A DNA stretch of 64,000 nucleotides from Klebsiella phage FKP3. The stretch lies in the sequence record PP895363.1. The stretch is one strand, 5' to 3'. Shown one piece after another: positions 4,593 to 22,549 of this stretch; the stretch's first letter is position 1; the number at the start of each line of letters is the position of its first letter. Made by a program: the position numbers and the translations under genes. The notes under the pieces are model-generated. The model was not told the DNA's origin. It saw only the letters and a program-made list of their open reading frames with translations, and did not search any database.

Positions 4593-5756
4593 TTATCTTG
4601 ATCTTATTTTATAAGGTTGACCAAAAGATGCCCTACTTCCACTAGACATTTTACCATATCCTGTGGTAGCTCCTAGTGGCGTAGGAATGGCTACAGCCTT
4701 GAATACAGCCTCTTTCATCAGTGTATTAAAACAAGATGCCGCAGCATCCGGGATATCGTCTTTGAGTGTTGCAGTAGACCTCTCTCCATTGAAAGATTCT
4801 AATTCTTTATAAAAGTGATCTAAAGTTTCTTTATTTGGGAAAGAGTCTTCAACAATATATACAAAACCATTTTGACAAGCACTACTAAAAGGCATAAAAC
4901 GCTGTAGTTTCTTTTTGTTCCCTGGCATTGCATCAGGTTTTACAATGAAACCTTCAGAAATAAGCTTCTTAGCAGATTCTGTATATTCAATCAAACCTGC
5001 ACCAGATGGGTCTTTAGGAAGAACTACAATAACCTCATCTCCATCAATTTTACATTGATTAAGAATCAAATTATCTCGTTCACCCGGTAATCTTCTAAAT
5101 CTACCAAAGATTTTACTTTTCTCATCTACTGCATCGTAATCATAATCTCCGAAGATATAGACATTACCATCAGTATCTTTACCCATTTTGACAGACGTGG
5201 TATAGTCTGGATAACGATACGATTCTGTCGGAACAGATACAGCTTTATCCCATGCTCGCATATACTTCATATTATTTGGCACATCTGAATATTTAATTAC
5301 ATGCAACCATTCTCTATTGAAGAAACTTTCTTCTTGTGCTCTTGCAAACCAACACCCATCTAAGAGCTGTGCTCTTTTCACTGCGGTTTGTGCTTTCAGA
5401 GAGGCTAGATATTTAGGATTAAGACGTATAAGCTCTGGATTATCAAATATAGTTCCGCCGATAAATACAAAGCTCTGCGGTTCGATAGTAACTATTTCGC
5501 CTGTATTTGGGTTTTCCATGAAGCAGTTTTCAGGATACTTTTCCTTTAGTTCTTCTGGGTCTTCTGCAAATACCGGTTCATCATTTACAATAAGAAAATA
5601 TAGTTGTTTACCACACATGTCGTCGCGTGGAAATCCTGCTTCATCTAGATAAGGTAATACCCAATTAATAACCCAACTATCTGCATCTGGGTTACAGGTG
5701 CATAGCATAAAAGATGTTGCAGACTCAGAACGTAAACGACCAAGAAGGTAAAGCAT
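4593..5756 (-). CDS. terminase large subunit, exon 2 (motif III plus RNase H-like nuclease domain)
   Basis: Translation contains the coupling motif (FMLCTCNP) and a nuclease-domain-like C-terminus; no SD before the annotated ATG; the reading frame stays open about 40 nt upstream into the intron. Confidence 0.6.
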   Translation of the reverse strand: MLYLLGRLRSESATSFMLCTCNPDADSWVINWVLPYLDEAGFPRDDMCGKQLYFLIVNDEPVFAEDPEELKEKYPENCFMENPNTGEIVTIEPQSFVFIGGTIFDNPELIRLNPKYLASLKAQTAVKRAQLLDGCWFARAQEESFFNREWLHVIKYSDVPNNMKYMRAWDKAVSVPTESYRYPDYTTSVKMGKDTDGNVYIFGDYDYDAVDEKSKIFGRFRRLPGERDNLILNQCKIDGDEVIVVLPKDPSGAGLIEYTESAKKLISEGFIVKPDAMPGNKKKLQRFMPFSSACQNGFVYIVEDSFPNKETLDHFYKELESFNGERSTATLKDDIPDAAASCFNTLMKEAVFKAVAIPTPLGATTGYGKMSSGSRASFGQPYKIRSR

Positions 5757-7112
5757 TTCATATTGTGTGAAATGTGTCCTGGTGTTCGAGAAGGCACGTT
5801 ACGACCTTCCCCGAGATTACTCTCTGCTGCATGTTTCCATGCAGAGCAGACTATATCATCATCCATTAGGATGCCTTGCGCTTCGCCTCACTTGAGGCTA
5901 CTCTACTCACTTCCGTATTTCTACGTGCTTTCGATAGTCGTTAAACTTTACACCACACAAACTAAAAATTATAATCCTTGGATACTTCTGTAAAAGTTTT
6001 CCTAGATTTTATTCCGTACACTCTCTGATAGTTTAGGTGTTCACTGCAATGCATCTTAACTATTGCACCACATTTAAAACCTTTCTCTAACATCTCGCAT
6101 ATCCATTTAACTGTCTCTACTGATAAGGTAGCTGGTCGCGTCAGATTGAAAGTATAATCTTTCACTATGTCTGCAAATATAGCCTTCCTTTTAATATTTC
6201 GTACTGTGTGATAAGCTACACCAACTGTTTCAGAAACATCTTTCGGACTCAAGCCCTCTTCTAAAAGCTCACAGATCGTTCTTACTTCATGTTCTGTCAT
6301 ATTAGTATTTGGACTATTTATACCAGCAGCTTTTACATGTAAACCTGTGTCATAAGCATGTTGTACGTTCTGAGAACAACTTACCCATTCCAAATTACTA
6401 GGATGATAATTCATTTTATTTCCATCCTTATGGTTTACTTGTTTGTACTCCTCTGGAGAAGGATTCTCTACAAAGATTTCAGCCACTATGACATGGAGAG
6501 ATTTTGTAGTTCTGCGTCCTGTATCAGTAGTCATTGCAACAGCAGGATAACCTCCTCTATTACAACGAATAGTTAATTTATTATTTAGTTTTGTACTAAA
6601 GATTTCATAATTATCAGTCATATGATACTTAGAAAATCCTTTTATTTCATGCATTTTCACCTCCTGCTAACATTAGGAGTTTGCATGGTGTCTTAGCTTG
6701 GTATTGCCCTCGTCTCTACGTTAGGGGTTTCACCAAATTCACAAGGTTTTCGATACATGTTCCCATGTAAAGGCTCTAAAAATCAAAGCTCGTCGAAACC
6801 GACCATACTGTATTGTGTACCTTGCAGTACGTGTTGATTTACTTAGCATATAGGTAAATCGGAGGATTCCTCCTCACCCTTTATGTTACCATAAAGATCA
6901 GACCATATCATAACCCACGTCCTATGGGTTGTTGGCGCTTGGAGATCGCTTGATCCCTACTCTACTTACAAGCTTTAGCATCTTGCGTCTTGCTTTCGAT
7001 GGTCGTTGCACCTTACTCCGAAGAGTCTTGGCTCAGGATTGTCCTCACAATGAGGAGTTTCCCTGAATTCACCAACTTATTCAACATACATTACTGTATG
7101 AGGCCACCAAGT
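5757..7112 (-). mobile_element. probable group I intron with an embedded HNH homing endonuclease, splitting the terminase large subunit gene
   Basis: About 450 nt and about 200 nt of non-coding RNA-like sequence flank a free-standing HNH ORF. The 3' segment has P7-like GACUA...UAGUC strands and a GNRA-capped hairpin (CUGCAUG-GAAA-CAUGCAG) resembling P9. Confidence 0.5.
5962..6660 (-). CDS. HNH homing endonuclease (HNH_3 / NUMOD type)
   Basis: Motif HVIVAEIFVENP...VNHKDGNKMNYHPSNLEWVSCSQNVQHA; strong SD AGGAGGTGAAA before the ATG; lies inside the terminase interruption. Confidence 0.7.
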   Translation of the reverse strand: MKMHEIKGFSKYHMTDNYEIFSTKLNNKLTIRCNRGGYPAVAMTTDTGRRTTKSLHVIVAEIFVENPSPEEYKQVNHKDGNKMNYHPSNLEWVSCSQNVQHAYDTGLHVKAAGINSPNTNMTEHEVRTICELLEEGLSPKDVSETVGVAYHTVRNIKRKAIFADIVKDYTFNLTRPATLSVETVKWICEMLEKGFKCGAIVKMHCSEHLNYQRVYGIKSRKTFTEVSKDYNF

Positions 7113-7976
7113 TTAATGGTTAGTTTCCGCTGTTACGTTATCATTTTCTAAGTGGTCGAATTTTAATGTTCCACCTCCGGTAGCTCTGAACTCCATTTCC
7201 ATAGCTTGTTCACGAACATGTGGCTGAAGTTTCAGATATAGCTTTTTAGCTTCTGTAAATAACCCACCAGGCTTACGTAGAGCTGTTGTATTTTTACGGA
7301 ATAGGATTCCGCCAAACAGTGGGTCTTTGCAAGCATATTTTAAAGCTTTCAGCAGGAGTAGACGAGACTTGCCGCTATTCCCAGTAACGAAGATATGATC
7401 GCCACGTCTAAAGACAACATAACTGCTTGGAGTTTCAAAACAATATTTTTTATCATCACTTGTCATTACCTCGTGTATTTTTAGATAAGTGTTAGTTTTA
7501 CCTGAGATATTAAATGGTACTCTTTTACCGAAAGGATTTTCTACATACCCTCTAAGTGGTTCTCCTGCTTGCTGCAATGCAATAAGATCTCCAACTAAAA
7601 TCTCAAAATGTTTTTTAGATTTTTTCTTTTTATAGAATACAAACCTGTGTTCCATACTAAGTTCTTGGAATAAACCCACACCATTTGTTATTCTATATAA
7701 GTTATCTTTTGTATCATACTCTACAAAGTATGGACTAACTAACTCCAGTTTCCTGTTTCTTGGATTGTATTGATAAATATCTTCTCCCGAGTATTGATCA
7801 ATTCTCTTCCATCCTGCTGGTGTTAAATACTCTGTCTCTGCTGTAACGCATCCCGCAGCACCCCCATAAATCATTACCTCTGGCATTAAATCCATTGCTA
7901 ATGTTTGTTTACCCGGTTGAGCTTTTACTTCAATCTCAATATTTGCTAAGTTTGTCTTAACTGGTTTACGTGCCAA
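7113..7976 (-). CDS. terminase large subunit, exon 1 (ATPase N-terminus; contains a mini-intein in the Walker A motif)
   Basis: ...MIYGGAAG|C(intein)...N|SGKSRLLLL reconstitutes the Walker A motif GAAGSGKS; the ORF ends at a stop inside the intron. Confidence 0.6.
   Translation of the reverse strand: MARKPVKTNLANIEIEVKAQPGKQTLAMDLMPEVMIYGGAAGCVTAETEYLTPAGWKRIDQYSGEDIYQYNPRNRKLELVSPYFVEYDTKDNLYRITNGVGLFQELSMEHRFVFYKKKKSKKHFEILVGDLIALQQAGEPLRGYVENPFGKRVPFNISGKTNTYLKIHEVMTSDDKKYCFETPSSYVVFRRGDHIFVTGNSGKSRLLLLKALKYACKDPLFGGILFRKNTTALRKPGGLFTEAKKLYLKLQPHVREQAMEMEFRATGGGTLKFDHLENDNVTAETNH
7377..7850 (-). other. mini-intein (158 aa) inserted in the terminase P-loop
   Basis: Starts at Cys43 (CVTAETEYLTPAGWKRIDQ, resembling intein block A ClxxDTxIxTPxGW); ends ...DHIFVTGN followed by Ser+1; removing it restores GGAAG-SGKS. 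Confidence 0.5.
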
Positions 7977-9480: not shown

Positions 9481-9556
9481 TGGTACTCCGAACTGGACTC
9501 GAACCAGTGTTTGACGATTATCAGTCGCCTGTTCTTGCCATCTGAACTATCAGAGT
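9481..9556 (-). tRNA. tRNA-Ile (anticodon GAU)
   Basis: Acceptor ACTCTGA/TCGGAGT-A-CCA, T-arm ACTGG-TTCGAGT-CCAGT, anticodon loop CTGATAA; CCA encoded. Confidence 0.6.
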
Positions 9557-9677
9557 ATGAATGTGTGGGCTAGTCTCTTAGCCCTATGCTATACTTGTCT
9601 CTTACAGACTGACGTAGCACACGTGCAGCGACCCTTCATATTTATTTTACATCTACAGAAGGTCATTAGATAGATTT

Positions 9678-9765
9678 GGCAGCAAAGCGAGGAGTCGAAC
9701 CCCTTAGTCTGTGGTTTGGAGCCACATAGAGCGCCATGCTCATTTAAACTTGCTCGGCTATTGTT
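9678..9765 (-). tRNA. tRNA-like gene; the anticodon stem-loop TGTGG-CTCCAAA-CCACA suggests Trp (CCA), but the D-arm and acceptor stem are irregular
   Basis: T-arm AGGGG-TTCGACT-CCTCG, 3' end CTTTGCT-G-CCA; the 5' acceptor has mismatches. Confidence 0.3.
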
Positions 9766-9844
9766 TGGAGTCAGGGGCGGGAGTCGAACCCGCAATCTTG
9801 AGCATATGAAACTCACATGGTAAATCCATTCCACCACCCTGCGC
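9766..9844 (-). tRNA. tRNA with CAU anticodon (Met, fMet or Ile2-like); the acceptor end has two mismatches
   Basis: T-arm GCGGG-TTCGACT-CCCGC, anticodon stem-loop TGAGT-TTCATAT-GCTCA, 3' CCCTGAC-T-CCA. Confidence 0.4.
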
Positions 9845-10282
9845 ATTATTTGGTAGTAACTAAGAGAATCAAACTCTTCTCACAACGCCGTATGAAAGCG
9901 TTCGAAACATCAGCTTCACAGTTACTTTTAATTAAACACGATGAATAATTTTAACTGTCTCGCCTTTATCATTCATCAAATAAGCACTTTCATCTTTGTG
10001 TATGAAGGTGGTAGAACTTCCGCTGATAACGCTGGCAATAACACTATCTGGCTTTTGATAGCCTTCAAAATGGTATTGGACTTTTATGTTACCATCGAGT
10101 TCTATATAATGTTCTTCTTCATCTACATCAAAAGGTACTGAATCATAAATTTTTGTCCCTTGTGGGAACTTACGAATAATTTTTAATGTGTACATAATGC
10201 TTCCTTAGTAGTATTTAGTATTAAATAAATGTGCCGTCCCAAGCCGAACGGCGATTAGTGTTATTGCTTGGCATTGATAATA

Positions 10283-10357
10283 TGGTACTTCCTACAGGAA
10301 TCGAACCTATGACGCTCACCGTGTAAAGATGACGTTCTGCCATTGAACTAAGGAAGT
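10283..10357 (-). tRNA. tRNA-Val (UAC)
   Basis: Acceptor ACTTCCT/AGGAAGT-A-CCA, anticodon loop TTTACAC, T-loop TTCGATT. Confidence 0.6.
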
Positions 10358-10430
10358 ATGGCGGGGATTTCCCGCACTGTCTATCGCGATATGGACTCCG
10401 ACAGTGTTCTCGGTTAAATACCCCATTATT

Positions 10431-10517
10431 TGGTGCTTCAGGTGAGACTCGAACTCACAATCCTCTAGGGCGCTGGCTTCTAAGACCAGAGTGTATATCC
10501 ATTTCCACCACTGAAGC
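10431..10517 (-). tRNA. tRNA-Leu (UAG), class II
   Basis: Acceptor GCTTCAG/CTGAAGC-A-CCA, anticodon loop CTTAGAA, 13-nt variable arm, T-arm GTGAG-TTCGAGT-CTCAC. Confidence 0.6.
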
Positions 10518-10648
10518 ATTATTTAGTATAGGTTAAGAGTTGTATCGGCCCTCTTCTTAAACGGTGAAAGGAAAGTTTGGTTTTTCTCCAAACGTGCTAA
10601 CACCTTTTACATCCACTCTAAGTCATCGGACGCAACCTATATTTTTTT

Positions 10649-10727
10649 TGGTGGAGCCGGAGAGAATCGAACTCTCAACAGGAAAGGTGCAAACCTCCCT
10701 CGCTACCTTAGTACATGCAACCCCAAA
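10649..10727 (-). pseudogene. degenerate tRNA-like element (good T-arm and 3' CCA but no matching 5' acceptor strand)
   Basis: GAGAG-TTCGATT-CTCTC then CGGCTCC-A-CCA; no complementary GGAGCCG upstream. Confidence 0.25.
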
Positions 10728-10856
10728 TTTTTGCGCCCCTTTGTAGTGAATGTCTTTAAGCGGAGTCTTTAATGCAAGCAATAAATTTACTCACACACTT
10801 AATCTTAGACCTACTCAGATGGACGGCTTTAGCATGGCGTCCCATACCTTCTTAAT

Positions 10857-10932
10857 TGGCACGGATGGAAGGAGTCGAACCTCCGGCGCAGGGCTTCGTA
10901 AACCCTCGTTCTGTCCACTGAACTACACCCGT
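10857..10932 (-). tRNA. tRNA-Arg (ACG)
   Basis: Acceptor ACGGGTG/CATCCGT-G-CCA, anticodon loop TTACGAA, T-loop TTCGACT. Confidence 0.6.
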
Positions 10933-11061
10933 ATAATACTTTGCCTAAAACGCCACAACTTGTTTGGTCTTGCACCGTGTCAGTTGCTATTTATCGGTAG
11001 AATTTGAGCCATTAACCTGAGCGAATATTTGTCATGGTTGTCACACCATCAAGGCAAAACT

Positions 11062-11136
11062 TGGTGCAACCTACAGGTATCGAGCCTGTCTATCTGCCTT
11101 TTCAGGGCAGCACTCATCCATCTAAGTCAAAGTTGC
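11062..11136 (-). tRNA. tRNA-Phe (GAA)
   Basis: Acceptor GCAACTT/AGGTTGC-A-CCA, anticodon stem-loop CTGCC-CTGAAAA-GGCAG, T-loop CTCGATA. Confidence 0.6.
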
Positions 11137-11276
11137 ATATTATTAATTGTCATCATGGAAACCGAAAATCCACGCCATATCAACTCGAAGTTAAAAATCC
11201 TTGACTTCGGCACCATCTGGTGCTGGCTAGGCACTACCTAGCAGGACAGTCACAAAATCGTGACGATGACAAAATT

Positions 11277-11354
11277 TGGTCTCCGTAGAAAGATTTGAAC
11301 TTTCGACCCCACCGCCCCAAACGGCATACTCTGACCAGGCTGAGCTACACGGAG
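11277..11354 (-). tRNA. tRNA-Pro (UGG)
   Basis: Acceptor CTCCGTG/TACGGAG-A-CCA, anticodon loop TTTGGGG, T-arm GAAAG-TTCAAAT-CTTTC. Confidence 0.6.
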
Positions 11355-11439
11355 ATAATACTTTCGAGGAGATCTCACCCTATACAGCAAAACCGTATAC
11401 TATCTGTCAGGGTTACTGTATACTGTGCTCCTCTGAATT

Positions 11440-11515
11440 TGGCTGGGGATCTTGGAATCGAACCAAGTCGATGACGAGTTCAAAGCCCGTCGCCTTCCCA
11501 TTTGGCTAATCCCCA
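11440..11515 (-). tRNA. tRNA-Gln (UUG)
   Basis: Acceptor TGGGGAT/ATCCCCA-G-CCA, anticodon loop CTTTGAA, T-arm CTTGG-TTCGATT-CCAAG. Confidence 0.6.
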
Positions 11516-11522
11516 ATTAAAC

Positions 11523-11611
11523 TGGTATAGTGGACGGGATTCGAACCCGCAAGGTAGTTTCCTACTCTAGATTGAAAGTCTAGCTACTTCGACCGATTTG
11601 TATACCACTAT
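11523..11611 (-). tRNA. class II (long variable arm, 3-bp D-stem) tRNA with an apparent UUC anticodon; non-canonical identity
   Basis: Acceptor ATAGTGG/CCACTAT-A-CCA perfect, anticodon stem-loop CTAGA-CTTTCAA-TCTAG, variable arm GTAG-GAAA-CTAC, T-arm GCGGG-TTCGAAT-CCCGT. Confidence 0.4.
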
Positions 11612-11730
11612 ATAAAATTATTTAAAAAGGAATGCTAGAACTTGAAGGAGAAAACCATGAGCGAAAAGAGAAAGTTTTCTAACATTCCTGTCTAAATAAT
11701 CTTGAAATAATCACTTTGTTCAAGAGTTGT

Positions 11731-11807
11731 TGGTGCGGGTGACAGGATTCGAACCTGCGACGAACTGGGTGGAAGCCAGACACTCTACCAGACTGAGTTA
11801 CACACGC
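11731..11807 (-). tRNA. tRNA-Gly (UCC)
   Basis: Acceptor GCGTGTG/CACCCGC-A-CCA (one mismatch), anticodon loop CTTCCAC, T-arm GCAGG-TTCGAAT-CCTGT. Confidence 0.5.
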
Positions 11808-11831
11808 ACTGATTAAGAACTCTACAATATT

Positions 11832-11861
11832 ACTCTACTACATTTTAATACTTATTGTCAA
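11832..11861 (-). promoter_or_regulatory. sigma70-like promoter on the minus strand (TTGACA-N18-TAGAGT) reading into the tRNA genes
   Basis: Minus-strand sequence TTGACAataagtattaaaatgtagTAGAGT. Confidence 0.35.
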
Positions 11862-12056
11862 GTGTTAATTTAAAATTGTGAGACAGTGACGGATATCTCA
11901 TAGATGACTAATCCTACGTCCGGCTTAAGCAAGGCGACGATATCGTACACCTTCTCGTCGATTGGCAGGAGCCGTTCCTCCTGAATTACTATCTAGCATC
12001 TGAGATGAAGACAGCCTCACCAATCAACCTACTCCCAGTCACGGTTTCAGAACTTC

Positions 12057-12132
12057 TGGTGCTCCAAGTAGGTTTCGAACCCACGACCCCATGCTTACAA
12101 GGCAAGTGCTCTACCAACTGAGCTATTGAAGC
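12057..12132 (-). tRNA. tRNA-Thr (UGU)
   Basis: Acceptor GCTTCAA/TTGGAGC-A-CCA, anticodon loop CTTGTAA (one U-U pair in the stem), T-arm GTGGG-TTCGAAA-CCTAC. Confidence 0.5.
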
Positions 12133-12349
12133 AAATAGTATTTTATTATTGAAAGGTATTCCACCATAATATCAAGGTTTGCCGATGCAGTAGTTCGGGA
12201 ACTAGACAATGCCGCTTACGCGCTGGTTATCTCAATTCAAACCCACTGCAAACCGTGGTAGTTGAGGCCAGTTTCTTTTCCACTTGTTTCCACTTATAAG
12301 TCTTAACCAGACCGGGATACGGGCTTATAAGATCATCAATAATAAAATT

Positions 12350-12434
12350 TGGCGATGGATCAAGGATTTGAACCTTGCTGGAGATTTCTCTCACGGATTA
12401 ACAGTCCGCCGCCCAACCACTAGGCCAATCCATC
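12350..12434 (-). tRNA. Ser-like class II tRNA (G73, 3-bp D-stem, long variable arm) with an apparent GUU (Asn-decoding) anticodon
   Basis: Acceptor GATGGAT/ATCCATC-G-CCA, anticodon stem-loop GCGGA-CTGTTAA-TCCGT, variable arm GAGA-GAAA-TCTC, T-arm CAAGG-TTCAAAT-CCTTG. Confidence 0.4.
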
Positions 12435-12511
12435 ATTATTCTTTGTTAAGAGTAGGCGCGTATTCCGTCGCCTCGTGTTATTTTCTCCTGTTTCCAGGCT
12501 CCCTTTAGAGC

Positions 12512-12587
12512 AGCGGGCAGGGAGAATCGAACTCCCTTAGCATCTTTCAGCAAACCCGAAGGTCATTGTCTAGCCACGACCACCCGC
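12512..12587 (-). tRNA. tRNA-like gene, fold unresolved (good T-arm; acceptor pairs via G-U; no clean anticodon arm found by eye)
   Basis: GGGAG-TTCGATT-CTCCC, 3' TGCCCGC-T without an encoded CCA, 5' GCGGGTG. Confidence 0.3.
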
Positions 12588-12624
12588 ACAGTTATGTGTA
12601 CCTCTAAAGCTCTCTTAACTAATC

Positions 12625-12708
12625 TGGTGTGGGTAGATGGATTCGAACCACCGCGCCTTTCGGATCTGATTTACAGTCAGGTGCATTCAGCCACTCTGCC
12701 ATACCCAC
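12625..12708 (-). tRNA. tRNA-Tyr (GUA), class II
   Basis: Acceptor GTGGGTA/TACCCAC-A-CCA, anticodon loop CTGTAAA, long variable arm, T-arm GGTGG-TTCGAAT-CCATC. Confidence 0.55.
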
Positions 12709-12782
12709 ATTATCTGGTGTGGTACTTGTTACTGATTCTTCTGACGATACAGATACCTCTCATATAACTTTCCCACATTATC

Positions 12783-12859
12783 TGGTACGCCGGAAAGGAT
12801 TCGAACCTTTATTCCTCTCGTTAAAAGCGAGATGCCTTATCCAGTTTAGCTACCGACGC
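12783..12859 (-). tRNA. tRNA-Lys (UUU)
   Basis: Acceptor GCGTCGG/CCGGCGT-A-CCA (G-U pairs), anticodon stem-loop TCTCG-CTTTTAA-CGAGA, T-arm AAAGG-TTCGAAT-CCTTT. Confidence 0.6.
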
Positions 12860-12967
12860 ATAAATATTTTTTAAGATAGCAACCGCTTAACGATTGCTAT
12901 AAGTTAAGGTTACTTTTAAACAATAAATCAATCACCAATAACATCCTTGCTATCTTAAAAAACACTT

Positions 12968-13053
12968 TGGCGGAAGAGGGGAGGGTTGAACTCCCACGCC
13001 CTTTCGGACGGCAGTTTAGCAAACTGCTATGGCTACCATTTCATCACTCTTCC
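12968..13053 (-). tRNA. tRNA-Ser (GCU), class II
   Basis: Acceptor GGAAGAG/CTCTTCC-G-CCA, anticodon stem-loop GCAGT-TTGCTAA-ACTGC, long variable arm, T-arm GGGAG-TTCAACC-CTCCC. Confidence 0.6.
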
Positions 13054-13057
13054 TAAA

Positions 13058-13507
13058 TTAATTTCCTTTCGTTCTGTATTTGATGGCTCTTTTTTCAGGA
13101 TCGTAGTTTTGTTTTCTTCTTTCCTGTTCGAGCAATCTTGCTTGTCTATATGCAACAGAACATTCTTCACAACGGCAACCTCTTTTTTGATACGCATAAC
13201 TTGTACCGTGAACGATAGGTTTTTCAACCCTGTTTATTACCGTCCCAGTTTCACTTACACGTCTTGCTGCCGCAGAGTTACAGCTATGATGGCTATAACT
13301 AATATTCTCTAACCCAAAGAACATCTTATCTGGTTCCTCTGAATATCTCCAAGGAACAATGTGTTCAATGCTATAATTGTCTTCGTTCATCTCTTTACCA
13401 CAATGGTAACAAGAAGTTCTTCCTGTCTCGACAATCATTTGCCACATGAGTTTTCTTATCAGAATGTTTCGCGCTTTTCCCATCGACATACCTAACTCGT
13501 CGCTCAC
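13058..13507 (-). CDS. HNH endonuclease embedded in the tRNA cluster
   Basis: Motifs CYHCGK...EHIVPW...HHSCN; likely GTG start at 13507 with SD AAGGAG (the ORF track extends to 13555, which overlaps the pseudo-tRNA). Confidence 0.55.
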   Translation of the reverse strand: MSDELGMSMGKARNILIRKLMWQMIVETGRTSCYHCGKEMNEDNYSIEHIVPWRYSEEPDKMFFGLENISYSHHSCNSAAARRVSETGTVINRVEKPIVHGTSYAYQKRGCRCEECSVAYRQARLLEQERRKQNYDPEKRAIKYRTKGN

Positions 13508-13526
13508 GATACACTCCTTATAAATT

Positions 13527-13605
13527 GGCGCGACTGACGATACTCGAACTCGCATTCTCTCCTGTGACAGGGGAGTACCATTACCTAGCCAGCCCCGCGA
13601 CTATA
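13527..13605 (-). pseudogene. degenerate tRNA-like element
   Basis: TTCGAGT T-loop motif and a 3' ...GTCGCG-CCA, but no complementary acceptor and the anticodon region forms a triloop hairpin. Confidence 0.2.
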
Positions 13606-13607
13606 AT

Positions 13608-13733
13608 TTATAAATCTGGTCGTTCATCTCTGTTAACTAAACGGATACCACCGTCAGATAAAACTTCAAGTTTTGAATATTGATAAACTACGACCTTGTT
13701 ATCACTCATTGTTACTCCGGTTAATACAAGCAT
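13608..13733 (-). CDS. small hypothetical protein, 41 aa
   Basis: SD AGGAGATTATAATG; MLVLTGVTMSDNKVVVYQYSKLEVLSDGGIRLVNRDERPDL. Confidence 0.3.
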   Translation of the reverse strand: MLVLTGVTMSDNKVVVYQYSKLEVLSDGGIRLVNRDERPDL

Positions 13734-13751
13734 TATAATCTCCTAAGTTTG

Positions 13752-13841
13752 TGGCGGAAGATAACGGAGTCGAACCATCACCATATCGCTACAGCGGGCT
13801 GGTTTTCAAGACCAGTTGCGTACCGCTACGCCCTATCTTCC
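13752..13841 (-). tRNA. tRNA-Ser (UGA), class II
   Basis: Acceptor GGAAGAT/ATCTTCC-G-CCA, anticodon stem-loop CTGGT-CTTGAAA-ACCAG, long variable arm. Confidence 0.55.
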
Positions 13842-13856
13842 ACATCTATACTTACT

Positions 13857-13886
13857 ACTCTATCATACTTTTCAATCAGTTGTCAA
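13857..13886 (-). promoter_or_regulatory. sigma70-like promoter on the minus strand (TTGACA-N18-TAGAGT)
   Basis: Minus-strand sequence TTGACAactgattgaaaagtatgaTAGAGT; the -35 hexamer also lies in an inverted repeat TTGTCAA...TTGACAA. Confidence 0.35.
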
Positions 13887-13917
13887 GAAAAACTTTCCAC
13901 CTTTTTTGACAATTATT

Positions 13918-13992
13918 TGGTAGAGCCACTAGGAATCGAACCTAGACTGTAGAGTTAGAAGCTCCATTTGCTATCCATTACAACATAGCTCC
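13918..13992 (-). tRNA. tRNA-Arg (UCU)
   Basis: Acceptor GGAGCTA/TGGCTCT-A-CCA (G-U pairs), anticodon stem-loop TGGAG-CTTCTAA-CTCTA, T-arm CTAGG-TTCGATT-CCTAG. Confidence 0.5.
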
Positions 13993-14006
13993 ATTTATTT
14001 AGGCCA

Positions 14007-14036
14007 ACTATAACACACACTATTCGTTATTGTCAA
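14007..14036 (-). promoter_or_regulatory. sigma70-like promoter on the minus strand (TTGACA-N18-TATAGT)
   Basis: Minus-strand sequence TTGACAataacgaatagtgtgtgtTATAGT. Confidence 0.4.
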
Positions 14037-14189
14037 GCTCTTTTTTAATTTCTTTTTTAGCTTTCTGACGTTCAGTAGCTTTACACACTTCTTGCCAAGA
14101 GTCGTACTCATCTCCTTTACGATAGCCACGGCTACGACAAAGAGAACATAGACAACCTTCTTGACTATATTTCAAACCATGAGGTTTCA
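14020..14189 (-). CDS. small Cys-rich protein, 56 aa
   Basis: SD AAGGAAACTC-ATG; MKPHGLKYSQEGCLCSLCRSRGY... Confidence 0.3.
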
Positions 14190-14198
14190 TGAGTTTCC

Positions 14199-14450
14199 TT
14201 AGATTATCAGAGTTTTAAACTTAATGCAAATGATTTTCTTCTTACCGCCTACATACTGCCAATGATGTATCTCCGCAGCTACTTCTAGGGAAGTTCCTAC
14301 TTCACGGTAGGCGTGAGTGATTACATCAATCCAGTATTCACAATCAGGCTGATAAATCATACTGTAGTGCTTATCAATCAACGTATTGATACCGCCGCAA
14401 TCTCCAATTGTCTTACGCCACGGTGTACTCTTCATAACAAACTTTTCCAA
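14199..14450 (-). CDS. hypothetical protein, 83 aa (may start at the internal ATG at 14436)
   Basis: ORF overlapping the upstream small ORF through an ATGA junction. Confidence 0.3.
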   Translation of the reverse strand: MEKFVMKSTPWRKTIGDCGGINTLIDKHYSMIYQPDCEYWIDVITHAYREVGTSLEVAAEIHHWQYVGGKKKIICIKFKTLII

Positions 14451-14572
14451 GTTTTATCAGGAATTTCTGATGGAGGAATCTTACCTTCTGTCTTGGCTTT
14501 ATCGTCTACTGCTTTTTTAATAGCTTGAACCTGTGCCTCGGTTAAAGGGCCATCATCTTTTTCGTATGCCAT
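14433..14572 (-). CDS. small hypothetical protein, 46 aa
   Basis: Strong SD TAGGAGAAATATA-ATG; MAYEKDDGPLTEAQVQAIKKAVDDKAK... Confidence 0.3.
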
Positions 14573-14787
14573 TATATTTCTCCTATTTATTATCAAAACA
14601 CATAAAGGAGGACAATGATCAGGTGACGTTTGCCAACGCCCTGCCGAAGTTTAGAGATGGTTGCAAATCATCCCCAACCGCATCACTGGTTTAAACTCAC
14701 ATGATCAGTGCTTGTTTCTGGATACTCACACGCCCATACGTGCAGACAGTTTTAACGCCAATCAATGCCTTTCTTTATATGTTCTGT

Positions 14788-14912
14788 ATGGTTGACTGCT
14801 ACAGGACTTGAACCTGTTTCTCTTCGCGCGGATTTACGTTGTACCAACATGTGAGGAATCGAACCTCTCCACTACCCTACCGAAGCGCATATACCTATCA
14901 TGCTCATACAGT
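14788..14912 (-). pseudogene. two adjacent degenerate tRNA-like remnants (T-arm-like motifs without full cloverleafs)
   Basis: ACAGG-TTCAAGT-CCTGT...CAACCA and GAGG-TTCGATT-CCTC; no complementary acceptors at the correct distance. Confidence 0.2.
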
Positions 14913-14914
14913 CA

Positions 14915-14990
14915 TTGGAGGATGATATGGGATTTTAACCCATCTAATACTGTTTTGCAGACAGTCTCCTAGACACTCGGACAATCATCC
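14915..14990 (-). tRNA. tRNA-Cys (GCA)
   Basis: Acceptor GGATGAT/ATCATCC-T-CCA, anticodon stem-loop ACTGT-CTGCAAA-ACAGT, T-arm ATGGG-TTAAAAT-CCCAT. Confidence 0.55.
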
Positions 14991-14999
14991 CATTGAAAA

Positions 15000-15077
15000 T
15001 GGTGTGACTGGTGGGGCATGATCCCACATCATCTCCTTCACAGGGAGAAACGTTAACCAGCTTACGCTCACAGTCAC
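15000..15077 (-). tRNA. tRNA-His (GUG) with an atypical T-loop (ATCATGC) and a G at position -1
   Basis: Acceptor GTGACTG/CAGTCAC-A-CCA, anticodon stem-loop TCTCC-CTGTGAA-GGAGA, T-stem GTGGG/CCCAC. Confidence 0.45.
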
Positions 15078-15285
15078 CATTGATTTTGCAGTTGCTATTC
15101 TCCTTAAACACCGCACATACGGTATTAAGCAGAATAACTTTCGTGCTGCTTCACGATGTGGAGTTCCCCACATTGAAGTTTGTTCACACTTGTCACAGTG
15201 CTTCTCTTCCGAGTAAACCACTCTCGTAGTTGCTGACAAACAACTCGTAAAATATATTCTCGTAAGAACATATATTGCGAGAGTT

Positions 15286-15426
15286 TGGCACCAGGAGGAG
15301 GAATCGAACACTCCTAATCAGGTCATGACTCCTGACTATCTCAAACCAAACACTGTTGTGTCGGCTATTGCATAATAGCGAGCGCTCACTCCTATGCAGA
15401 CCTTCACCAGTGTCGAGATCCTGGTA
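15286..15426 (-). other. about 140-nt tRNA-like element: complementary acceptor strands (ACCAGGA ... TCCTGGT-G-CCA) separated by about 125 nt, with a T-loop-like TGTTCGATTC and internal hairpins; possibly an interrupted or insert-containing tRNA
   Basis: Sequence inspection only; no canonical cloverleaf fits. Confidence 0.2.
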
Positions 15427-15431
15427 TTGTT

Positions 15432-15520
15432 TGGTGCGGGTAGTGGGAGTCGAACCCACAGGAGGAAACCCTCCGAGGGATTTTAAATCCCTTGCGTACT
15501 GCCAATACCGCCATACCCGC
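15432..15520 (-). tRNA. tRNA-Leu (UAA), class II
   Basis: Acceptor GCGGGTA/TACCCGC-A-CCA, anticodon stem-loop AGGGA-TTTAAAA-TCCCT, long variable arm, T-arm GTGGG-TTCGACT-CCCAC. Confidence 0.6.
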
Positions 15521-15531
15521 ATTAAATTTAG

Positions 15532-15606
15532 TGACCCCCGGAGGATTCGAACCTACCTACCTCTCGATTATGAGTCGATTGCTCATACCTAATGAGCTTG
15601 AGGGCC
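15532..15606 (-). tRNA. tRNA with CAU anticodon (Met, fMet or Ile2), no encoded CCA
   Basis: Acceptor GGCCCTC/GGGGGTC-A (G-U pairs), D-stem GCTC/GAGC, anticodon loop CTCATAA, T-loop TTCGAAT. Confidence 0.45.
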
Positions 15607-16280: not shown

Positions 16281-17999
16281 CTATTTCACTTCAATCAAAT
16301 GATTCATAACCTCTTTATCCAGACGAGCACGGATATCGTTGAAATCTTCATCACGACCGTTCACCTGGGGAATTAATACATTCCCGTTACGGAAGATGGG
16401 TTGAAGCAGGTTATCTTCATCATTAATCTCTTCAAACGAGATGTTATCCACTTGATGCAGGATACCATCTTTACGAACAACCTTGATGAATCCTTTCGCA
16501 GAGCGTTTACTTGGGTCTGTTTTCGGTTCTTTGCTCACCATGATTTCGTAATCGTCAATGAAGCAGCCAGTCGCTTTCACAGCCATACCAAAGGTATCAC
16601 GAGTGTTAAACTGATAGGTGAAGCTACCAACGCCGAATACGATGTTTGAAGAAGCAAAACCCTTTTCTTTGAGACGTTTAAGAATTTCGATCTCACGCTC
16701 AACAGTGATAGAATCCCCGTAAATCATGCCGATGTGAGTATCCAGCACTTTATAGCCTTTGCTGTTCACTTCACCACCAAAGATTTCCCACAATACTTGG
16801 ATGGAACCTACAGCCTCATGGCGTGGAATCTGTTGACATTCTGCGTCAATAACCCAAGTCTGAGTCGTTAATGAATAACGGGGTTCAAAATAACCATTTT
16901 TTGTACTAACCAAAAGGTCTTCAACTTCATATGGTTTAATGTTTTCCAGTTCTTCTTCACTAACAATGTTGTATCCCGCAACTACTTTAACCGGATCACC
17001 AGAATCAGGACGAACAACCAAACGACCATTACGCATCATGATTTCTTCTTTCAGTTCCGGCAGAATACGAGTGAGCACAGCCCAGTAATCGTAAGAGTCT
17101 GCAACATAAGAGCAGAAACCTTCCGGCACAATGTCTCGGATGAAAGTCAGAAGGAATTCCTTCTCAGCCAGATAACGGAGGCCATCTACATCACCTGCTA
17201 AGTGAGGGAAATGCTCTTCCAGATCTTTTACGATACGACTGATATTGGTAGTTGCAACAGAGTGTTCAGAAGCAGGGATACTACCAGCTACAAACTGATC
17301 ATCATCAATACCATAGTATTCGTGGACAGCTTCAATACCCAAGATGTTATCTGTACCAGTGAACGACGCTAGGTGAGCGATGCCACTCTTATACCCGTCT
17401 TCTACGGTGGACAAACCACGCAGACTGAAATCATGACACTGGAAGTTAACGTGATCCACGTTGTCACAGGTTGCCAGGGCGTAGGACATTGCCACACGCT
17501 TATACTGGAACGCAGCGGTTGCGTTGGTGATCGTTTTCCAGCTTTCGGTTGACATAAGTGTTTCGATGTAGTTAGTCACCCAGAAGAATTTCTCTACGGT
17601 GTTATGGATGGTATACACCGGAATACCAATCGGTGACAGAATACCTTCCGGCAGAGCGCGGATTTCAACTGGCAGATAACCCAGATCGTGAAGTTCACCC
17701 CAACATTCTGCTGATGGTGCAGCAGCGCCAAGTGCGTTTTTGGACATACGAGCAAATTTCTTCACAGCAGCTCCACGCTTCATCTTGAAGAATTTCTTCC
17801 ACATTCCAACCATTGAGTCCATTACCATGCGGCGCAGACCCAAGACAATAACGCCACGAGCATTCTTATCAGCGTAATGAGCAAAGTTTTTGTCATTACG
17901 TGGTGTCAGGTTAGAGAAGATTAGCTTTGTGTTCTGGTTGTACATCGGCTTGTGACCAGGTTTATACCAATCAGCAGCGAACGGTGCAAAAATTTCCAT
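16281..17999 (-). CDS. nicotinamide phosphoribosyltransferase-family protein (Nampt/NadV-like; candidate Namat of the NARP1 pathway)
   Basis: 572 aa; N-terminal DWYKPGHKPMY resembles the Nampt TDSYKxxH motif; paired with a Prs-like gene. Confidence 0.6.
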   Translation of the reverse strand: MEIFAPFAADWYKPGHKPMYNQNTKLIFSNLTPRNDKNFAHYADKNARGVIVLGLRRMVMDSMVGMWKKFFKMKRGAAVKKFARMSKNALGAAAPSAECWGELHDLGYLPVEIRALPEGILSPIGIPVYTIHNTVEKFFWVTNYIETLMSTESWKTITNATAAFQYKRVAMSYALATCDNVDHVNFQCHDFSLRGLSTVEDGYKSGIAHLASFTGTDNILGIEAVHEYYGIDDDQFVAGSIPASEHSVATTNISRIVKDLEEHFPHLAGDVDGLRYLAEKEFLLTFIRDIVPEGFCSYVADSYDYWAVLTRILPELKEEIMMRNGRLVVRPDSGDPVKVVAGYNIVSEEELENIKPYEVEDLLVSTKNGYFEPRYSLTTQTWVIDAECQQIPRHEAVGSIQVLWEIFGGEVNSKGYKVLDTHIGMIYGDSITVEREIEILKRLKEKGFASSNIVFGVGSFTYQFNTRDTFGMAVKATGCFIDDYEIMVSKEPKTDPSKRSAKGFIKVVRKDGILHQVDNISFEEINDEDNLLQPIFRNGNVLIPQVNGRDEDFNDIRARLDKEVMNHLIEVK

Positions 18000-18067: not shown

Positions 18068-18643
18068 TTATTCGACAGAATCTTCAACTTTTATACGCAA
18101 GAATGTACAACCTCTATGTGATCTACGTTTACCCAAGCAAACATCACTAACCAATCTAAAATCGAAACCAGCTTCTTCCAGCTCTTTGTTACCATTGCAG
18201 ATATGAATTATTTCATTCTCTGCACTTATTACAAAAGTCGTGTATAAAAGTCTTGCAGCCTTTCTACCAGTATGGATTGTTTTTAAACCAGTATCTATGG
18301 CATGTTTCTGATTTTCTTGGTTCGTTGACCATTCTAAGTTGTCCTTATGATTGTTCTCCTTATTACCATCCTTATGATTAACCTGTCTTTTGTTCATGGG
18401 GTTTGGTACAAAAGCCTCGGCAACTAATCTGTGAACTCTAAAGCGCTTTGACTTTCTGTTTACTGACAAATAAACATTCAAATACCCATACTTATCTCTT
18501 GAAGGTTGTAAAACACAACCTGTGTAGAGCAGAGGTTTGCCAGTATCACTACGGTATACTATACGATCAAGAGAACGGATAGTACCGTCATCACCTACTT
18601 CGTAGAACCCCTCATAGCCGGGAATAGCAACAAATTCTGTCAT
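18068..18643 (-). CDS. HNH homing endonuclease (HNH_3/NUMOD) inserted between the Nampt-like and Prs-like genes
   Basis: HRLVAEAFVPNP...VNHKDGNKENNHKDNLEW; paralogous to the intron-borne HNH at 5962-6660. Confidence 0.65.
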   Translation of the reverse strand: MTEFVAIPGYEGFYEVGDDGTIRSLDRIVYRSDTGKPLLYTGCVLQPSRDKYGYLNVYLSVNRKSKRFRVHRLVAEAFVPNPMNKRQVNHKDGNKENNHKDNLEWSTNQENQKHAIDTGLKTIHTGRKAARLLYTTFVISAENEIIHICNGNKELEEAGFDFRLVSDVCLGKRRSHRGCTFLRIKVEDSVE

Positions 18644-19566
18644 TTAACTATTAACTTCTGTAGCATTTCTTGGTTCTCCACTAAAATACCTTTGGTATTA
18701 CGACCATGTATGTTATTTCCCCAAGCATTAAAACAATGAATGGAGTCTATGATGCCATCAAAAATATCTATTCCTTTACCAAAGATGCCGTGTGTCACAT
18801 ACAGTTCTACACGCCCTGCATTTCTCTCCTTAAGAAGTTTACCTAATGCAAGGAATGTTCCACCGTTATCACAAATATCGTCCACAATCATAAGGTTTGC
18901 ACCGTGGAAGTCTTGCACACTGATATCTGTGCGAATGATGTCTCCAGTCGCCGTATCACGAATCTTATCTGCACAATGTACAGGAAGCTCCATACGTTTA
19001 GCCAGTTTGAAGATTTTCTTCAACGCTCCACCATCTGGGCTAACCAACTCAAAATTCTCCATACGTAGTTTCCATTTTAAAACATGGAAAGCAATCTCAT
19101 CTTGAGAAATGGCATCCAGATTGGTAATCACTGCTGGTGTCACTTCACTGTGTGGGTCAGCCACCAATACACGAGAGAACTCCAAGATGTTTAGAAGACG
19201 AGCAAACGACTTAACACCAAACGCCTCACCTTTCTCGCAGTAACGATCTTGTCGTGCATACGGAACGTATAGGGAAAACAGTTCAATTGGTTTTGGATTG
19301 AATCGTAAGATTTCGTCCAAAGCATCCTTCACCATTACCACAGCCATAAAATCATCTGAGGAACGGATATCTTGGTGAACTTCTACTTTTTGAATAGTAG
19401 TTAAGTCAATGAAAGAATATTTGAAAGCCTCCATATCAATCTTCACATGCACTTCACCACCGGAGAAGGTGAACACCTTTACTGAAATATCATTATCGTG
19501 ACCCCACTGGTCAATAACATTAATCTTCATCTTCTTCCTCCGATTCTTCCATTGCTTCAATTTCAC
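18640..19566 (-). CDS. ribose-phosphate pyrophosphokinase-family protein (Prs-like; candidate Adps of NARP1)
   Basis: PYARQDR, VADPHSE and MIVDDICDNGGT motifs of PRPP synthetase. Confidence 0.6.
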   Translation of the reverse strand: MKLKQWKNRRKKMKINVIDQWGHDNDISVKVFTFSGGEVHVKIDMEAFKYSFIDLTTIQKVEVHQDIRSSDDFMAVVMVKDALDEILRFNPKPIELFSLYVPYARQDRYCEKGEAFGVKSFARLLNILEFSRVLVADPHSEVTPAVITNLDAISQDEIAFHVLKWKLRMENFELVSPDGGALKKIFKLAKRMELPVHCADKIRDTATGDIIRTDISVQDFHGANLMIVDDICDNGGTFLALGKLLKERNAGRVELYVTHGIFGKGIDIFDGIIDSIHCFNAWGNNIHGRNTKGILVENQEMLQKLIVK

Positions 19567-22393: not shown

Positions 22394-22403
22394 GGAACCA
22401 AAC

Positions 22404-22535: not shown

Positions 22536-22549
22536 ACAGGAGAAATAAC

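Follow-up and report, generated by a model that had tools for sequence, protein, structure and literature searches.

Cognate identity marks in two hairpin-bearing tRNAs of Klebsiella phage FKP3: a tRNA-Asn(GUU) and a tRNA-Glu(UUC) of class II shape

Introduction

What does a tRNA carry when its shape and its anticodon point to different amino acids? The question is raised by two genes in the tRNA array of Klebsiella phage FKP3 (sequence record PP895363.1), of which a stretch of 64,000 nucleotides was analysed as a whole (the window). Both genes encode a tRNA with the long variable arm that is typical of class II tRNAs, and their anticodons, UUC and GUU, correspond to Glu and Asn codons. A preliminary description of this DNA had called the two tRNAs Ser-like. 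It proposed that they may be charged with serine and form a recoding or mistranslating device, or else that they are pseudogenes. On balance, we favour another reading, in which both genes are functional decoders of their cognate codons and the additional arm is under selection and helps to evade tRNA-cutting defences. The parts of this reading differ in strength. Judged from the identity elements, cognate decoding is likely for the Asn tRNA and probable for the Glu tRNA. Defence evasion as the use of the arm is plausible, and is put forward tentatively.

Fold and anticodons

ARAGORN calls both genes on the minus strand, with the same boundaries and anticodons that had been read by eye (Table 1). 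The Rfam tRNA model RF00005 scores the Glu tRNA at 56.1 bits and the Asn tRNA at 54.9 bits, compared to a gathering score of 29. In the corresponding alignment UUC and GUU are kept at positions 34–36, and the surplus bases appear as an insertion in the variable region; a covariance-model fold with a different triplet at the anticodon was thus not obtained.

The Glu tRNA reads AUAGUGG-UA-UAC[AAAUCGGUCGAA]GUA-G-CUAGA[CUUUCAA]UCUAG-A GUAG GAAA CUAC CUU-GCGGG[UUCGAAU]CCCGU-CCACUAU-A-CCA. Its acceptor stem (AUAGUGG/CCACUAU) pairs over 7 bp, and its D stem (UAC/GUA) has 3 bp, with A13 and A22 unpaired. The Asn tRNA reads GAUGGAU-UG-GCC[UAGUGGUUG]GGC-G-GCGGA[CUGUUAA]UCCGU-GAGA GAAA UCUC CAG-CAAGG[UUCAAAU]CCUUG-AUCCAUC-G-CCA, with the acceptor GAUGGAU/AUCCAUC and the anticodon loop CUGUUAA. 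The acceptors, arms, loops and anticodons are as first described. Only the 3-bp D stem assigned to the Asn tRNA needs to be qualified in part, since it can extend to 4 bp (GCCU/GGGC) through U13-G22, which is the pairing aligned by the covariance model. Class I tRNAs have a variable loop of 4–5 nt, and the Asn tRNA departs from this architecture through its 15-nt, hairpin-bearing variable region. The z-scores of single-sequence minimum free energy folding are unremarkable (−1.3 and −2.0). This measure is uninformative for tRNAs, and the analysis therefore relies on covariance models and on covariation.

Conservation and covariation of the arm

The extra arm is under selection, as can be observed from its substitutions in related phages. 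The long Glu gene is found with 100% identity in four Klebsiella phage records and with 86.5% identity in Citrobacter phage Tr1 (BLAST). The window and Tr1 copies differ at 12 positions without a single broken stem. Eight of these positions form four compensatory pairs, namely 3:70 (A-U to C-G), two arm pairs and 50:64 (C-G to U-A). The remainder consists of one G.U to A-U change and three unpaired positions, two in the D loop and one in the 3′ tail of the variable region. The arm stem of the Glu tRNA also changes in a compensatory manner elsewhere, to GAGG/CCUC in Tr1 and to UCAC/GUGG in LR756502, a 642-kb uncultured phage. The Glu gene matches an 86-nt tRNA-Glu(UUC) in the latter and an 87-nt tRNA-Glu(UUC) in Rhodococcus phage Trina.

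In phi92-like Escherichia phages (93% identity, 85 nt) the long Asn gene carries the annotation tRNA-Asn, and it recurs in phAPEC8-like phages (74% identity, 86 nt), in Tr1 and in a Salmonella Seunavirus. The BASEL phages PaulScherrer, EmilieFrey and JohannJBalmer, for which K-12 is a host, also have an Asn gene with 93% identity. BLAST also retrieves 82-nt tRNA-Asn genes from the T4-like Enterobacter phage CC31 and the T5-like Providencia phage PR1, so that the length of the orthologues ranges from 82 to 86 nt in the phi92-like, phAPEC8-like, Seunavirus, CC31 and PR1 genomes. Under a constant GAAA loop the stem reads GAGA/UCUC in the window, GAAC/GUUC in phage outra, GUUC/GAAC in phAPEC8 and GAGU/ACUC in Salmonella phage KE23. 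The orthologues of both genes carry the same non-serine anticodons; standard Ser anticodons, which would have pointed to decay in the window, are not seen among them.

A full-text search, in which subscription literature was not covered, gave no publication that mentions or accounts for the additional arm of phage Asn or Glu tRNAs. GenBank records label the relatives tRNA-Asn and tRNA-Glu.

The distribution was followed further in IMG/VR with a pattern consisting of the anticodon loop, 8–12 nt, GAAA, 8–12 nt and the T loop. At least 120 loci were found for Asn and 22 for Glu. ARAGORN was then run over all scanned loci and the arms were parsed, which gave at least 90 distinct long-arm Asn(GUU) sequences (all Asn figures from this set are among the matches listed) and 18 distinct Glu(UUC) sequences, with very diverse stems. 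Long-arm tRNAs of this kind occur in T4-like, T5-like, phi92-like and huge phages. When anchored on GAAA, the three loop-proximal pairs of the Asn arm (n = 85) are paired in 100%, 100% and 85% of the sequences, against 42–52% after shuffling. For the Glu arm (n = 15) the corresponding values are 100%, 100% and 87%, against 40–45%. When 32 diverse long Asn tRNAs are aligned with MAFFT, 91.9% of the cells are paired compared to 57.2% after shuffling, with none of 500 shuffles as high, and sliding the partner column lowers the value to 32–45%. The alignment pairs 54:63, 55:62 and 56:61 are each changed on both sides in 15–17 of the 32 sequences and are still 97–100% paired, while the outermost pair is formed in 14 of 32. 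Such covariation across relatives shows that the features did not arise by chance and that the arm is a hairpin under selection, with a stem of 3–4 bp.

The distribution of the long-arm genes is virus-restricted. The same pattern was applied to 185,579 bacterial and archaeal species, each represented by a single genome, and gave 27 hits, all on contigs of metagenome-assembled genomes and none in an isolate genome. Roughly 20 of these are real long Asn genes, and, as in phages, they mostly lie inside arrays with 3–40 tRNA genes in a stretch of at most 8 kb.

In a related Seunavirus the Glu slot holds a normal short tRNA-Glu, which speaks for an equal function of the long and the short form. LR756502 carries its long tRNA-Glu(UUC) beside a normal 73-nt tRNA-Glu(UUC) in one array. 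The order at this locus (2996–3432, locus numbering) is alternating: long Glu(UUC), Tyr, short Glu(UUC), Tyr, Glu(CUC).

Identity elements

The identity rules for Asn, Ser, Glu and Leu were taken from a review (PMC9976931). The Asn identity set of E. coli consists of the GUU anticodon and G73 and can be transplanted into tRNA-Lys (PMC9976931). Both elements, and thus the full set, are present in the window Asn tRNA. Its G26 and whole anticodon arm are identical to those of E. coli asnT (19/19 positions; asnT from NC_000913.3), and it differs from bacterial tRNA-Asn in the variable region. Of the 90 long Asn tRNAs in the phage family, 86 have G73. The first acceptor pair is split evenly in these 90 sequences, with U-A in 44 and G-C in 44. 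The same can be observed in short phage tRNA-Asn (U-A in 16 and G-C in 16 of 35), while U-A is found in only 3 of 56 phage tRNA-Tyr and in no phage tRNA-Ser. An anticodon arm identical to that of asnT also keeps the contexts for queuosine at position 34 and for N6-threonylcarbamoyladenosine (t6A) at position 37. BLAST of both tRNAs against 28 Gb of E. coli genomes gave no match, because an identity of 18–19 nt cannot reach significance in 28 Gb; the asnT and gltT sequences were taken directly instead.

The Glu tRNA contains U34, U35, C36 and A37. Its body resembles that of a short phage tRNA-Glu: the D arm UAC-AAAUCGGUCGAA-GUA is similar to GAC-AAACUGGUAAA-GUC of the phage T5 short tRNA-Glu, the T arm GCGGG-UUCGAAU-CCCGU to GCGGG-UUCGAUC-CCCAC of T5, and the anticodon loop is likewise T5-like. 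Bacterial tRNA-Asn and T5-type tRNA-Glu have the usual variable region of 4–6 nt, in contrast to the hairpin-bearing region of 15–16 nt in the window pair. A73 is present in 16 of 18 long Glu tRNAs and in 52 of 62 short phage Glu tRNAs, and G1.U72 in 12 of 18 and 37 of 62, respectively. Short Glu is the nearest class for 11 of the 18 long Glu tRNAs, both by D arm and by acceptor plus T arm. A second long Glu subgroup has the classical tRNA-Glu D arm GAC-UAGUGGCUUAG-GUC. The two D-arm subgroups indicate that the arm was added to two different Glu bodies.

The two long-arm genes are the sole Glu and Asn slots in a near-complete array with about one gene per amino acid (ARAGORN). [quoted passage not shown]

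Other isotypes with a long arm

The loci of the survey were chosen for long Asn only and are therefore unbiased for other isotypes. A variable region of at least 11 nt was counted as long, and the counts are again among the matches listed. Long forms are frequent for Thr(UGU) (17/55) and Cys(GCA) (10/42), and are also found for Met(CAU) (7/75), Asp(GUC) (3/54), Lys (4/87) and Glu(UUC) (2/57). None were found for Ala(UGC) (0/43), Arg (0/64), Gln (0/52), Gly (0/79), Phe (0/44), Pro (0/60) or Thr(CGU/GGU) (0/29). Each armed isotype displays its own marks. Among the matches listed, long Cys tRNAs have U73 in 10 of 11 and long Thr tRNAs C2-G71 in 12 of 12; long Met tRNAs have A73 in 8 of 8 and the initiator C1.A72 mismatch in 5 of 8. 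Of four long Asp tRNAs, three have G73 and all have G2-C71, and C38 can be read in the four that are shown. If the long-arm isotypes had a Ser identity in common, G73 and G2-C71 would be expected in all of them, and this is not seen.

Examples from IMG/VR are Thr(UGU) at L030 5808–5892, Cys(GCA) at L030 1179–1262, Met(CAU) at L016 2302–2388, Asp(GUC) at L145 2864–2951 and Lys(UUU) at L037 8996–9086, where the L numbers denote loci of the survey. Five long-arm isotypes occur together at locus L145. A few long-arm Lys, Gln, Trp and Ile tRNAs are also found in phage arrays, and they keep the discriminator base and acceptor marks of their isotype. The converse case exists as well: phage tRNA-Leu(UAG/UAA) may have a short variable region of 5–7 nt, as in Salmonella phage KE23 (3804–3880 and 419–496, locus numbering). 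Among the matches listed this applies to 8 of 35 Leu(UAA) and 11 of 36 Leu(UAG) genes. Such short-armed Leu tRNAs fit the finding that the leucyl-tRNA synthetase (LeuRS) of E. coli can do without the arm.

A possible role for the arm

In the proposed mechanism the host asparaginyl-tRNA synthetase (AsnRS) would charge the 85-nt tRNA with asparagine, and AAY codons would be read. The 89-nt tRNA would act as a T5-type phage tRNA-Glu that reads GAR codons. The GAAA-capped hairpin of 3–4 bp would be a selected add-on and not a serine identity tag. It would make the phage copy structurally unlike the host isoacceptor, and tRNA-targeting nucleases of the host or of a rival phage may then fail to cut the armed copy. 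The synthetase, elongation factor EF-Tu and the ribosome work with class II tRNAs in any case and would still accept it.

Two known systems are close to this proposal. The PARIS effector AriB depletes the Lys(UUU), Thr(UGU) and Asn(GUU) tRNAs of E. coli by cutting between positions 40 and 41, and T5 variants of tRNA-Lys, tRNA-Thr and tRNA-Asn with substitutions at the cut site rescue the infection (PMC12409363). As in the window, these are phage copies of host isoacceptors encoded in a tRNA array, and the Asn(GUU) and Thr(UGU) species are AriB targets (PMC12409363). The T5 escape variants differ in that they have normal length (78 nt for T5 Asn) and rely on point substitutions at the cut site. 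The window Asn tRNA, which is known here from its sequence, keeps the host U36-A-A-U-C|C41 at the AriB site and adds an entire helix, otherwise absent from this type of tRNA, that begins three nucleotides beyond. With a cut site identical to that of the host, any escape would need shape and not sequence. A precedent for shape is the tRNA-Tyr of phage SP15, which defeats the PtuAB nuclease of Retron-Eco7 only with its own variable loop, 5 nt longer than that of the host; the longer loop confers the resistance (PMC12673091). Septu likewise cuts the variable loop of tRNA-Tyr (PMC13096335). The selectivity for isotypes, high for Asn and Thr(UGU) and zero for many others, fits a targeted pressure rather than a generic one.

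The phage also encodes an RNA end-healing and sealing set about 10 kb from the tRNA genes (window 22013–25643, plus strand; Table 1). A healing and sealing set of this kind is the T4 tool-kit for repairing tRNA cut by PrrC. By analogy, the set looks like a T4-type tRNA repair pathway directed against anticodon nucleases. An ATP-dependent DNA ligase gene follows it.

It may be, although we hold this tentatively, that the two genes belong to an undescribed set of virus-specific, repeatedly evolved class II-shaped tRNAs that comprises Asn(GUU), Thr(UGU), Cys(GCA), initiator Met, Glu(UUC) and Asp(GUC). These would combine cognate identity with a short GNRA-capped arm that sterically protects them from tRNA-cutting immune nucleases of the host, PARIS AriB among them, a structural route of evasion unlike the point mutations of T5.

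Several points weigh against the reading as cognate, nuclease-evading decoders. In E. coli the glutamyl-tRNA synthetase (GluRS) recognises an 'augmented D helix' that consists of U11-A24, U13-G22:A46 and the lack of nucleotide 47 (PMC9976931). The window Glu tRNA does not have it and displays A11-U24, A13/A22 and a 16-nt variable region. The short tRNA-Glu of T5 has the same type of D arm and is also devoid of the D-helix determinants, so the E. coli rule may not apply to the phage lineage. The A73, A15 and U48 of the Glu tRNA lean to LeuRS, which suggests a small risk of leucylation. AsnRS is a class II synthetase that approaches its tRNA from the variable-loop side, and an added arm could interfere. 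Partial serylation of the Asn tRNA, which has G73 and a 4-bp arm, is conceivable: Himeno and colleagues reportedly obtained serine acceptance in vitro in 1990 from a tRNA-Tyr whose arm was lengthened by two nucleotides and which carried A73G. The prevalence of GAAA in the large set is biased, GAAA being part of the search pattern, yet GAAA is also found in 5 of 6 BLAST orthologues. Lys(UUU), the prime PARIS target, is rarely armed (2/54 among the matches listed). Finally, nearly every tRNA species is targeted by some toxin, which makes the overlap with nuclease targets weak evidence.

Alternative explanations

The alternative that survives best keeps cognate charging and assigns the arm to another use. 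It could be a handle for a phage or host factor in modification, processing or selective delivery, it could stabilise AT-rich, under-modified phage tRNAs, or it could be a neutral class II legacy, for example of tRNA-Tyr. We consider this possible, though unlikely. Only one change separates the tRNA-Tyr anticodon GUA from GUU, and many long Asn, Thr and Cys tRNAs have a class II-type D arm with a 3-bp stem and an 11-nt loop. In addition, the arms of the Tyr and Ser(GCU) tRNAs of the phage are likewise capped by GAAA tetraloops. For long Asn the class that comes out nearest is most often tRNA-Tyr, and the converse holds as well; the analysis is nevertheless ambiguous as to the origin of the arm, as tRNA-Tyr is only slightly ahead of short Asn and the class sizes confound the comparison. 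Generic stabilising is difficult to reconcile with the isotype selectivity and the virus restriction, and simple inheritance with the gain of the arm on at least two tRNA-Glu body types. A candidate binding protein was not identified either: among 29 open reading frames (ORFs) scanned with Pfam, a scan that left out most small ORFs, there is no phage synthetase or tRNA-modifying enzyme that could use the arm.

It could also be proposed that the Asn tRNA does not mainly decode but acts as a decoy that mimics tRNA-Tyr and soaks up Retron-Eco7 PtuAB or Septu. PtuAB cuts the variable loop of tRNA-Tyr, and overexpressed tRNA-Tyr neutralises its toxicity (PMC12673091); the same loop is cut by Septu (PMC13096335). 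The arm and D arm of the Asn tRNA are Tyr-like, and its anticodon loop CUGUUAA is close to CUGUAAA. This explanation is improbable. The phage has its own tRNA-Tyr gene adjoining the long Asn gene, and the strict G73 and GUU, together with U1-A72 in half of the family, point to Asn charging. The Glu, Cys, Thr and fMet versions would moreover be left unexplained.

Charging of both tRNAs by seryl-tRNA synthetase (SerRS), with Asn and Glu codons partly read as Ser in a mistranslation or recoding device, is slightly less probable still. SerRS does not read the anticodon and depends on G73 and the long arm (PMC9976931), and the Asn tRNA combines G73 and G1-C72 with an arm of 4 bp. Precedents for long-armed tRNAs with foreign anticodons are the allo-tRNAs (PMC5389517) and the nev-tRNAs (PMC3333845). 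G73 itself is shared by Ser and Asn and cannot separate the two readings. The tRNA-Ser of E. coli and of most bacteria keep G1-C72 and G2-C71 along with G73 (PMC9976931). The window Asn tRNA has A2-U71, and G2-C71 occurs in 44 of 45 phage Ser tRNAs compared to 34 of 90 long Asn tRNAs (among the matches listed). The arm geometry is also different. Phage Ser arms mostly have 4–6 bp (range 3–8) and 0–1 unpaired 3′ bases, whereas long Asn arms have 3–4 bp and 3–4 unpaired 3′ bases, like phage Tyr (3–4 bp, 3 unpaired); both window arms have 4 bp and 3 unpaired bases. The Glu tRNA has none of the Ser acceptor marks, but A73, A1-U72 and U2-A71 on a tRNA-Glu body with T5-Glu-like arms. The label Ser-like thus does not suit the Glu tRNA, and for the Asn tRNA it holds for G73 and G1-C72 and not for A2-U71 or the Tyr-like arm. 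As described above, each long-arm isotype keeps its own discriminator base in place of a common Ser set, and the array has no other Glu or Asn gene. It does contain the canonical tRNA-Ser(GCU) and tRNA-Ser(UGA) genes noted earlier, which ARAGORN also calls.

A comparison of orthologous proteins does not display a recoding signature. The window encodes a nicotinate/nicotinamide phosphoribosyltransferase family protein (NAMPT) that is 74% identical to that of outra, a relative without the long Glu gene. At 40 GAA/GAG codons of the comparison, Glu is found in 28, Ser in 1 and Leu in 1; at 22 AAC/AAT codons, Asn is found in 17 and Ser in none. In the large ORFs of the window (39.5% GC), Glu codons make up 7.6% and Asn codons 4.8%. 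At about 12% of all codons, or one in eight, serylation would be very costly. The proposal of a serylated device is poorly supported.

Allo-tRNAs are bacterial or phage-associated and also combine a long variable arm with non-serine anticodons, but they have 8/4 or 9/3 acceptor/T stems, long D arms like those of tRNA-Sec, and Ser identity with G73 or U73 (PMC5389517); the window pair is 7/5. The nev-tRNAs, eukaryotic noncanonical V-arm-containing tRNAs, share the class II shape and class I amino-acid anticodons. They are nematode tRNAs that are derived from tRNA-Leu and leucylated (PMC3333845), in contrast to the viral window pair with its cognate identity elements. The bacterial tRNAs for Ser, Leu and Tyr possess the variable-region stem-loop and, like many family members, a 3-bp D stem with a large D loop. 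The closest arm geometry is that of tRNA-Tyr (3–4 bp, 3 unpaired 3′ bases). The anticodons, discriminator base and acceptor pairs of the window pair and of the family, however, follow Asn and Glu and not Ser (G2-C71), Leu or Tyr (A73).

Leucylation of the Glu-anticodon tRNA, as in the nematode nev-tRNAs, has a very low probability. LeuRS of E. coli ignores both anticodon and arm, and its identity set comprises A73, A15-U48, G18G19 and A20a (PMC9976931). All of these except A20a can be read in the window Glu tRNA, which also has A14 and a class II-like D loop. Position 20a, however, is C, and short phage tRNA-Glu commonly have this type of D loop and A73 too (see above for A73). The only Glu slot of the array is filled by this tRNA, and Leu was found at just one of the 40 Glu codons compared.

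That both genes are decaying pseudogenes of Ser tRNAs is rejected, as apart from their unusual architecture they have perfect stems, an encoded CCA, high covariance-model scores, anticodons that are conserved across phage genera and families, and compensatory substitutions (in Glu relative to Tr1, and in the Asn arm over 32–85 sequences).

Genomic context

The window belongs to a member of the Stephanstirmvirinae, a relative of phi92 and phAPEC8, and its region 11400–12600 is 97% identical to Klebsiella phage KP13-26. The gene order of the tRNA array is shared with KP13-26, Tr1 and outra. All features are listed in Table 1.

Table 1. Features of the FKP3 window discussed in the text.
Feature	Position	Strand	Basis
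tRNA array, 23 genes with decoders for 18 amino acids; contains both long-arm genes	9481..15606	− (all)	ARAGORN
tRNA-Glu(UUC), 89 nt, 7/5 cloverleaf, A73, encoded CCA, long variable arm	11523..11611	−	ARAGORN, Rfam RF00005
Glu variable region: A, 4-bp stem GUAG/CUAC, GAAA loop, CUU (16 nt)	11551..11566	−	sequence
Glu anticodon UUC (GAA on plus strand), loop CUUUCAA	11574..11576	−	sequence and Rfam alignment
tRNA-Asn(GUU), 85 nt, 7/5 cloverleaf, G73, encoded CCA, long variable arm	12350..12434	−	ARAGORN, Rfam RF00005
Asn variable region: 4-bp stem GAGA/UCUC, GAAA loop, CAG (15 nt)	12378..12392	−	sequence
Asn anticodon GUU (AAC on plus strand)	12400..12402	−	sequence and Rfam alignment
tRNA-Tyr, adjoining the long Asn gene	12625-12708	−	ARAGORN
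tRNA-Ser(GCU)	12968-13053	−	ARAGORN
tRNA-Ser(UGA)	13752-13841	−	ARAGORN
tRNA-like remnant	9682-9753	−	weak Rfam match
tRNA-like remnant	12512-12588	−	weak Rfam match
165-aa ORF, tentatively HNH-type endonuclease	13058-13555	−	Pfam HNH_5, below cutoff
Large terminase gene, split	4593-7976	−	
Terminase, C-terminal part	4593-5756		Terminase_6N/6C
HNH endonuclease ORF between the terminase halves	5962-6660		
Group I intron	6879-7126		Rfam RF00028
Terminase, N-terminal 287 aa	7113-7976		identity to outra terminase
NAMPT (nicotinate/nicotinamide phosphoribosyltransferase family protein)	16281-17999	−	PF04095
ORF of HNH/NUMOD-type appearance	18068-18643		by eye
Likely ribose-phosphate pyrophosphokinase	18640-19566	−	sequence
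Cyclic-phosphate-processing receiver domain	22013-22393	+	Pfam PF20274
Calcineurin-like metallophosphoesterase	23548-24105	+	Pfam
T4 Rnl1-type RNA ligase	24319-25242	+	Pfam PF09511
AAA_33 P-loop kinase	25239-25643	+	Pfam
ATP-dependent DNA ligase	26471-27589		
SIR2-family protein	55425-56237	+	

Some differences to KP13-26 can be observed within the array. Between tRNA-Ser(GCU) and tRNA-Ser(UGA), where KP13-26 has a tRNA-Asp(GUC) (5124–5200, KP13-26 locus), the window contains a 165-aa ORF, and ARAGORN calls no tRNA-Asp in the window array. The assignment of this ORF as an HNH-type endonuclease is tentative, as HNH_5 scores 21.7 bits, under the cutoff of 27.5 bits. KP13-26 also has a tRNA with the anticodon CUA (7848–7922, its locus numbering), which is annotated as tRNA-Pyl and would read the amber stop codon. 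A tRNA with this anticodon was not found in the window by ARAGORN. The KP13-26 gene was considered as an anticodon-shifted orthologue of the window Cys or His tRNA, and this was rejected as it is similar to neither.

Two tRNA-like remnants are not called by ARAGORN and give only weak matches to the Rfam tRNA-Sec model: 22.0 bits for the one at 12512 and 22.6 bits for the one at 9682, with E values of about 0.7–0.9. In the former, GCGGGUG/CUGCCCGC can pair over 7 bp in the manner of an acceptor stem and the T arm is good (GGGAG-UUCGAUU-CUCCC), but CCA is absent and neither the D arm nor the anticodon arm can be credibly traced.

The large terminase gene is split. Its N-terminal part is 90% identical to residues 1–287 of the uninterrupted outra terminase, and the match ends exactly there. 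A group I intron (87.2 bits) and an HNH endonuclease ORF lie between the two halves.

NAD-related genes adjoin the array, namely NAMPT and the gene for the likely ribose-phosphate pyrophosphokinase (PRPP synthase), the latter judged from sequence alone; a SIR2-family protein is encoded further along. These genes may serve as a counter-defence through NAD+ salvage. The ORF between the NAMPT and PRPP synthase genes looks like an HNH/NUMOD-type endonuclease by eye.

Implications

The two genes should be kept in annotations as tRNA-Asn and tRNA-Glu, and not as Ser-like tRNAs, suppressors or pseudogenes. The division into class I and class II tRNAs, with the long arm reserved for Leu, Ser, bacterial Tyr and Sec, is treated as nearly universal, and a cognate long-arm set in viruses would be a clear exception to it. 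If the reading as cognate decoders is true, AsnRS, GluRS, the threonyl- and cysteinyl-tRNA synthetases (ThrRS and CysRS) and the initiation machinery tolerate an extra helix, which would be useful for the design of orthogonal or tagged tRNAs. If the arm does block defence nucleases, phages would have a second, structural route for the protection of their tRNAs, and its presence could be read off the sequence by itself.

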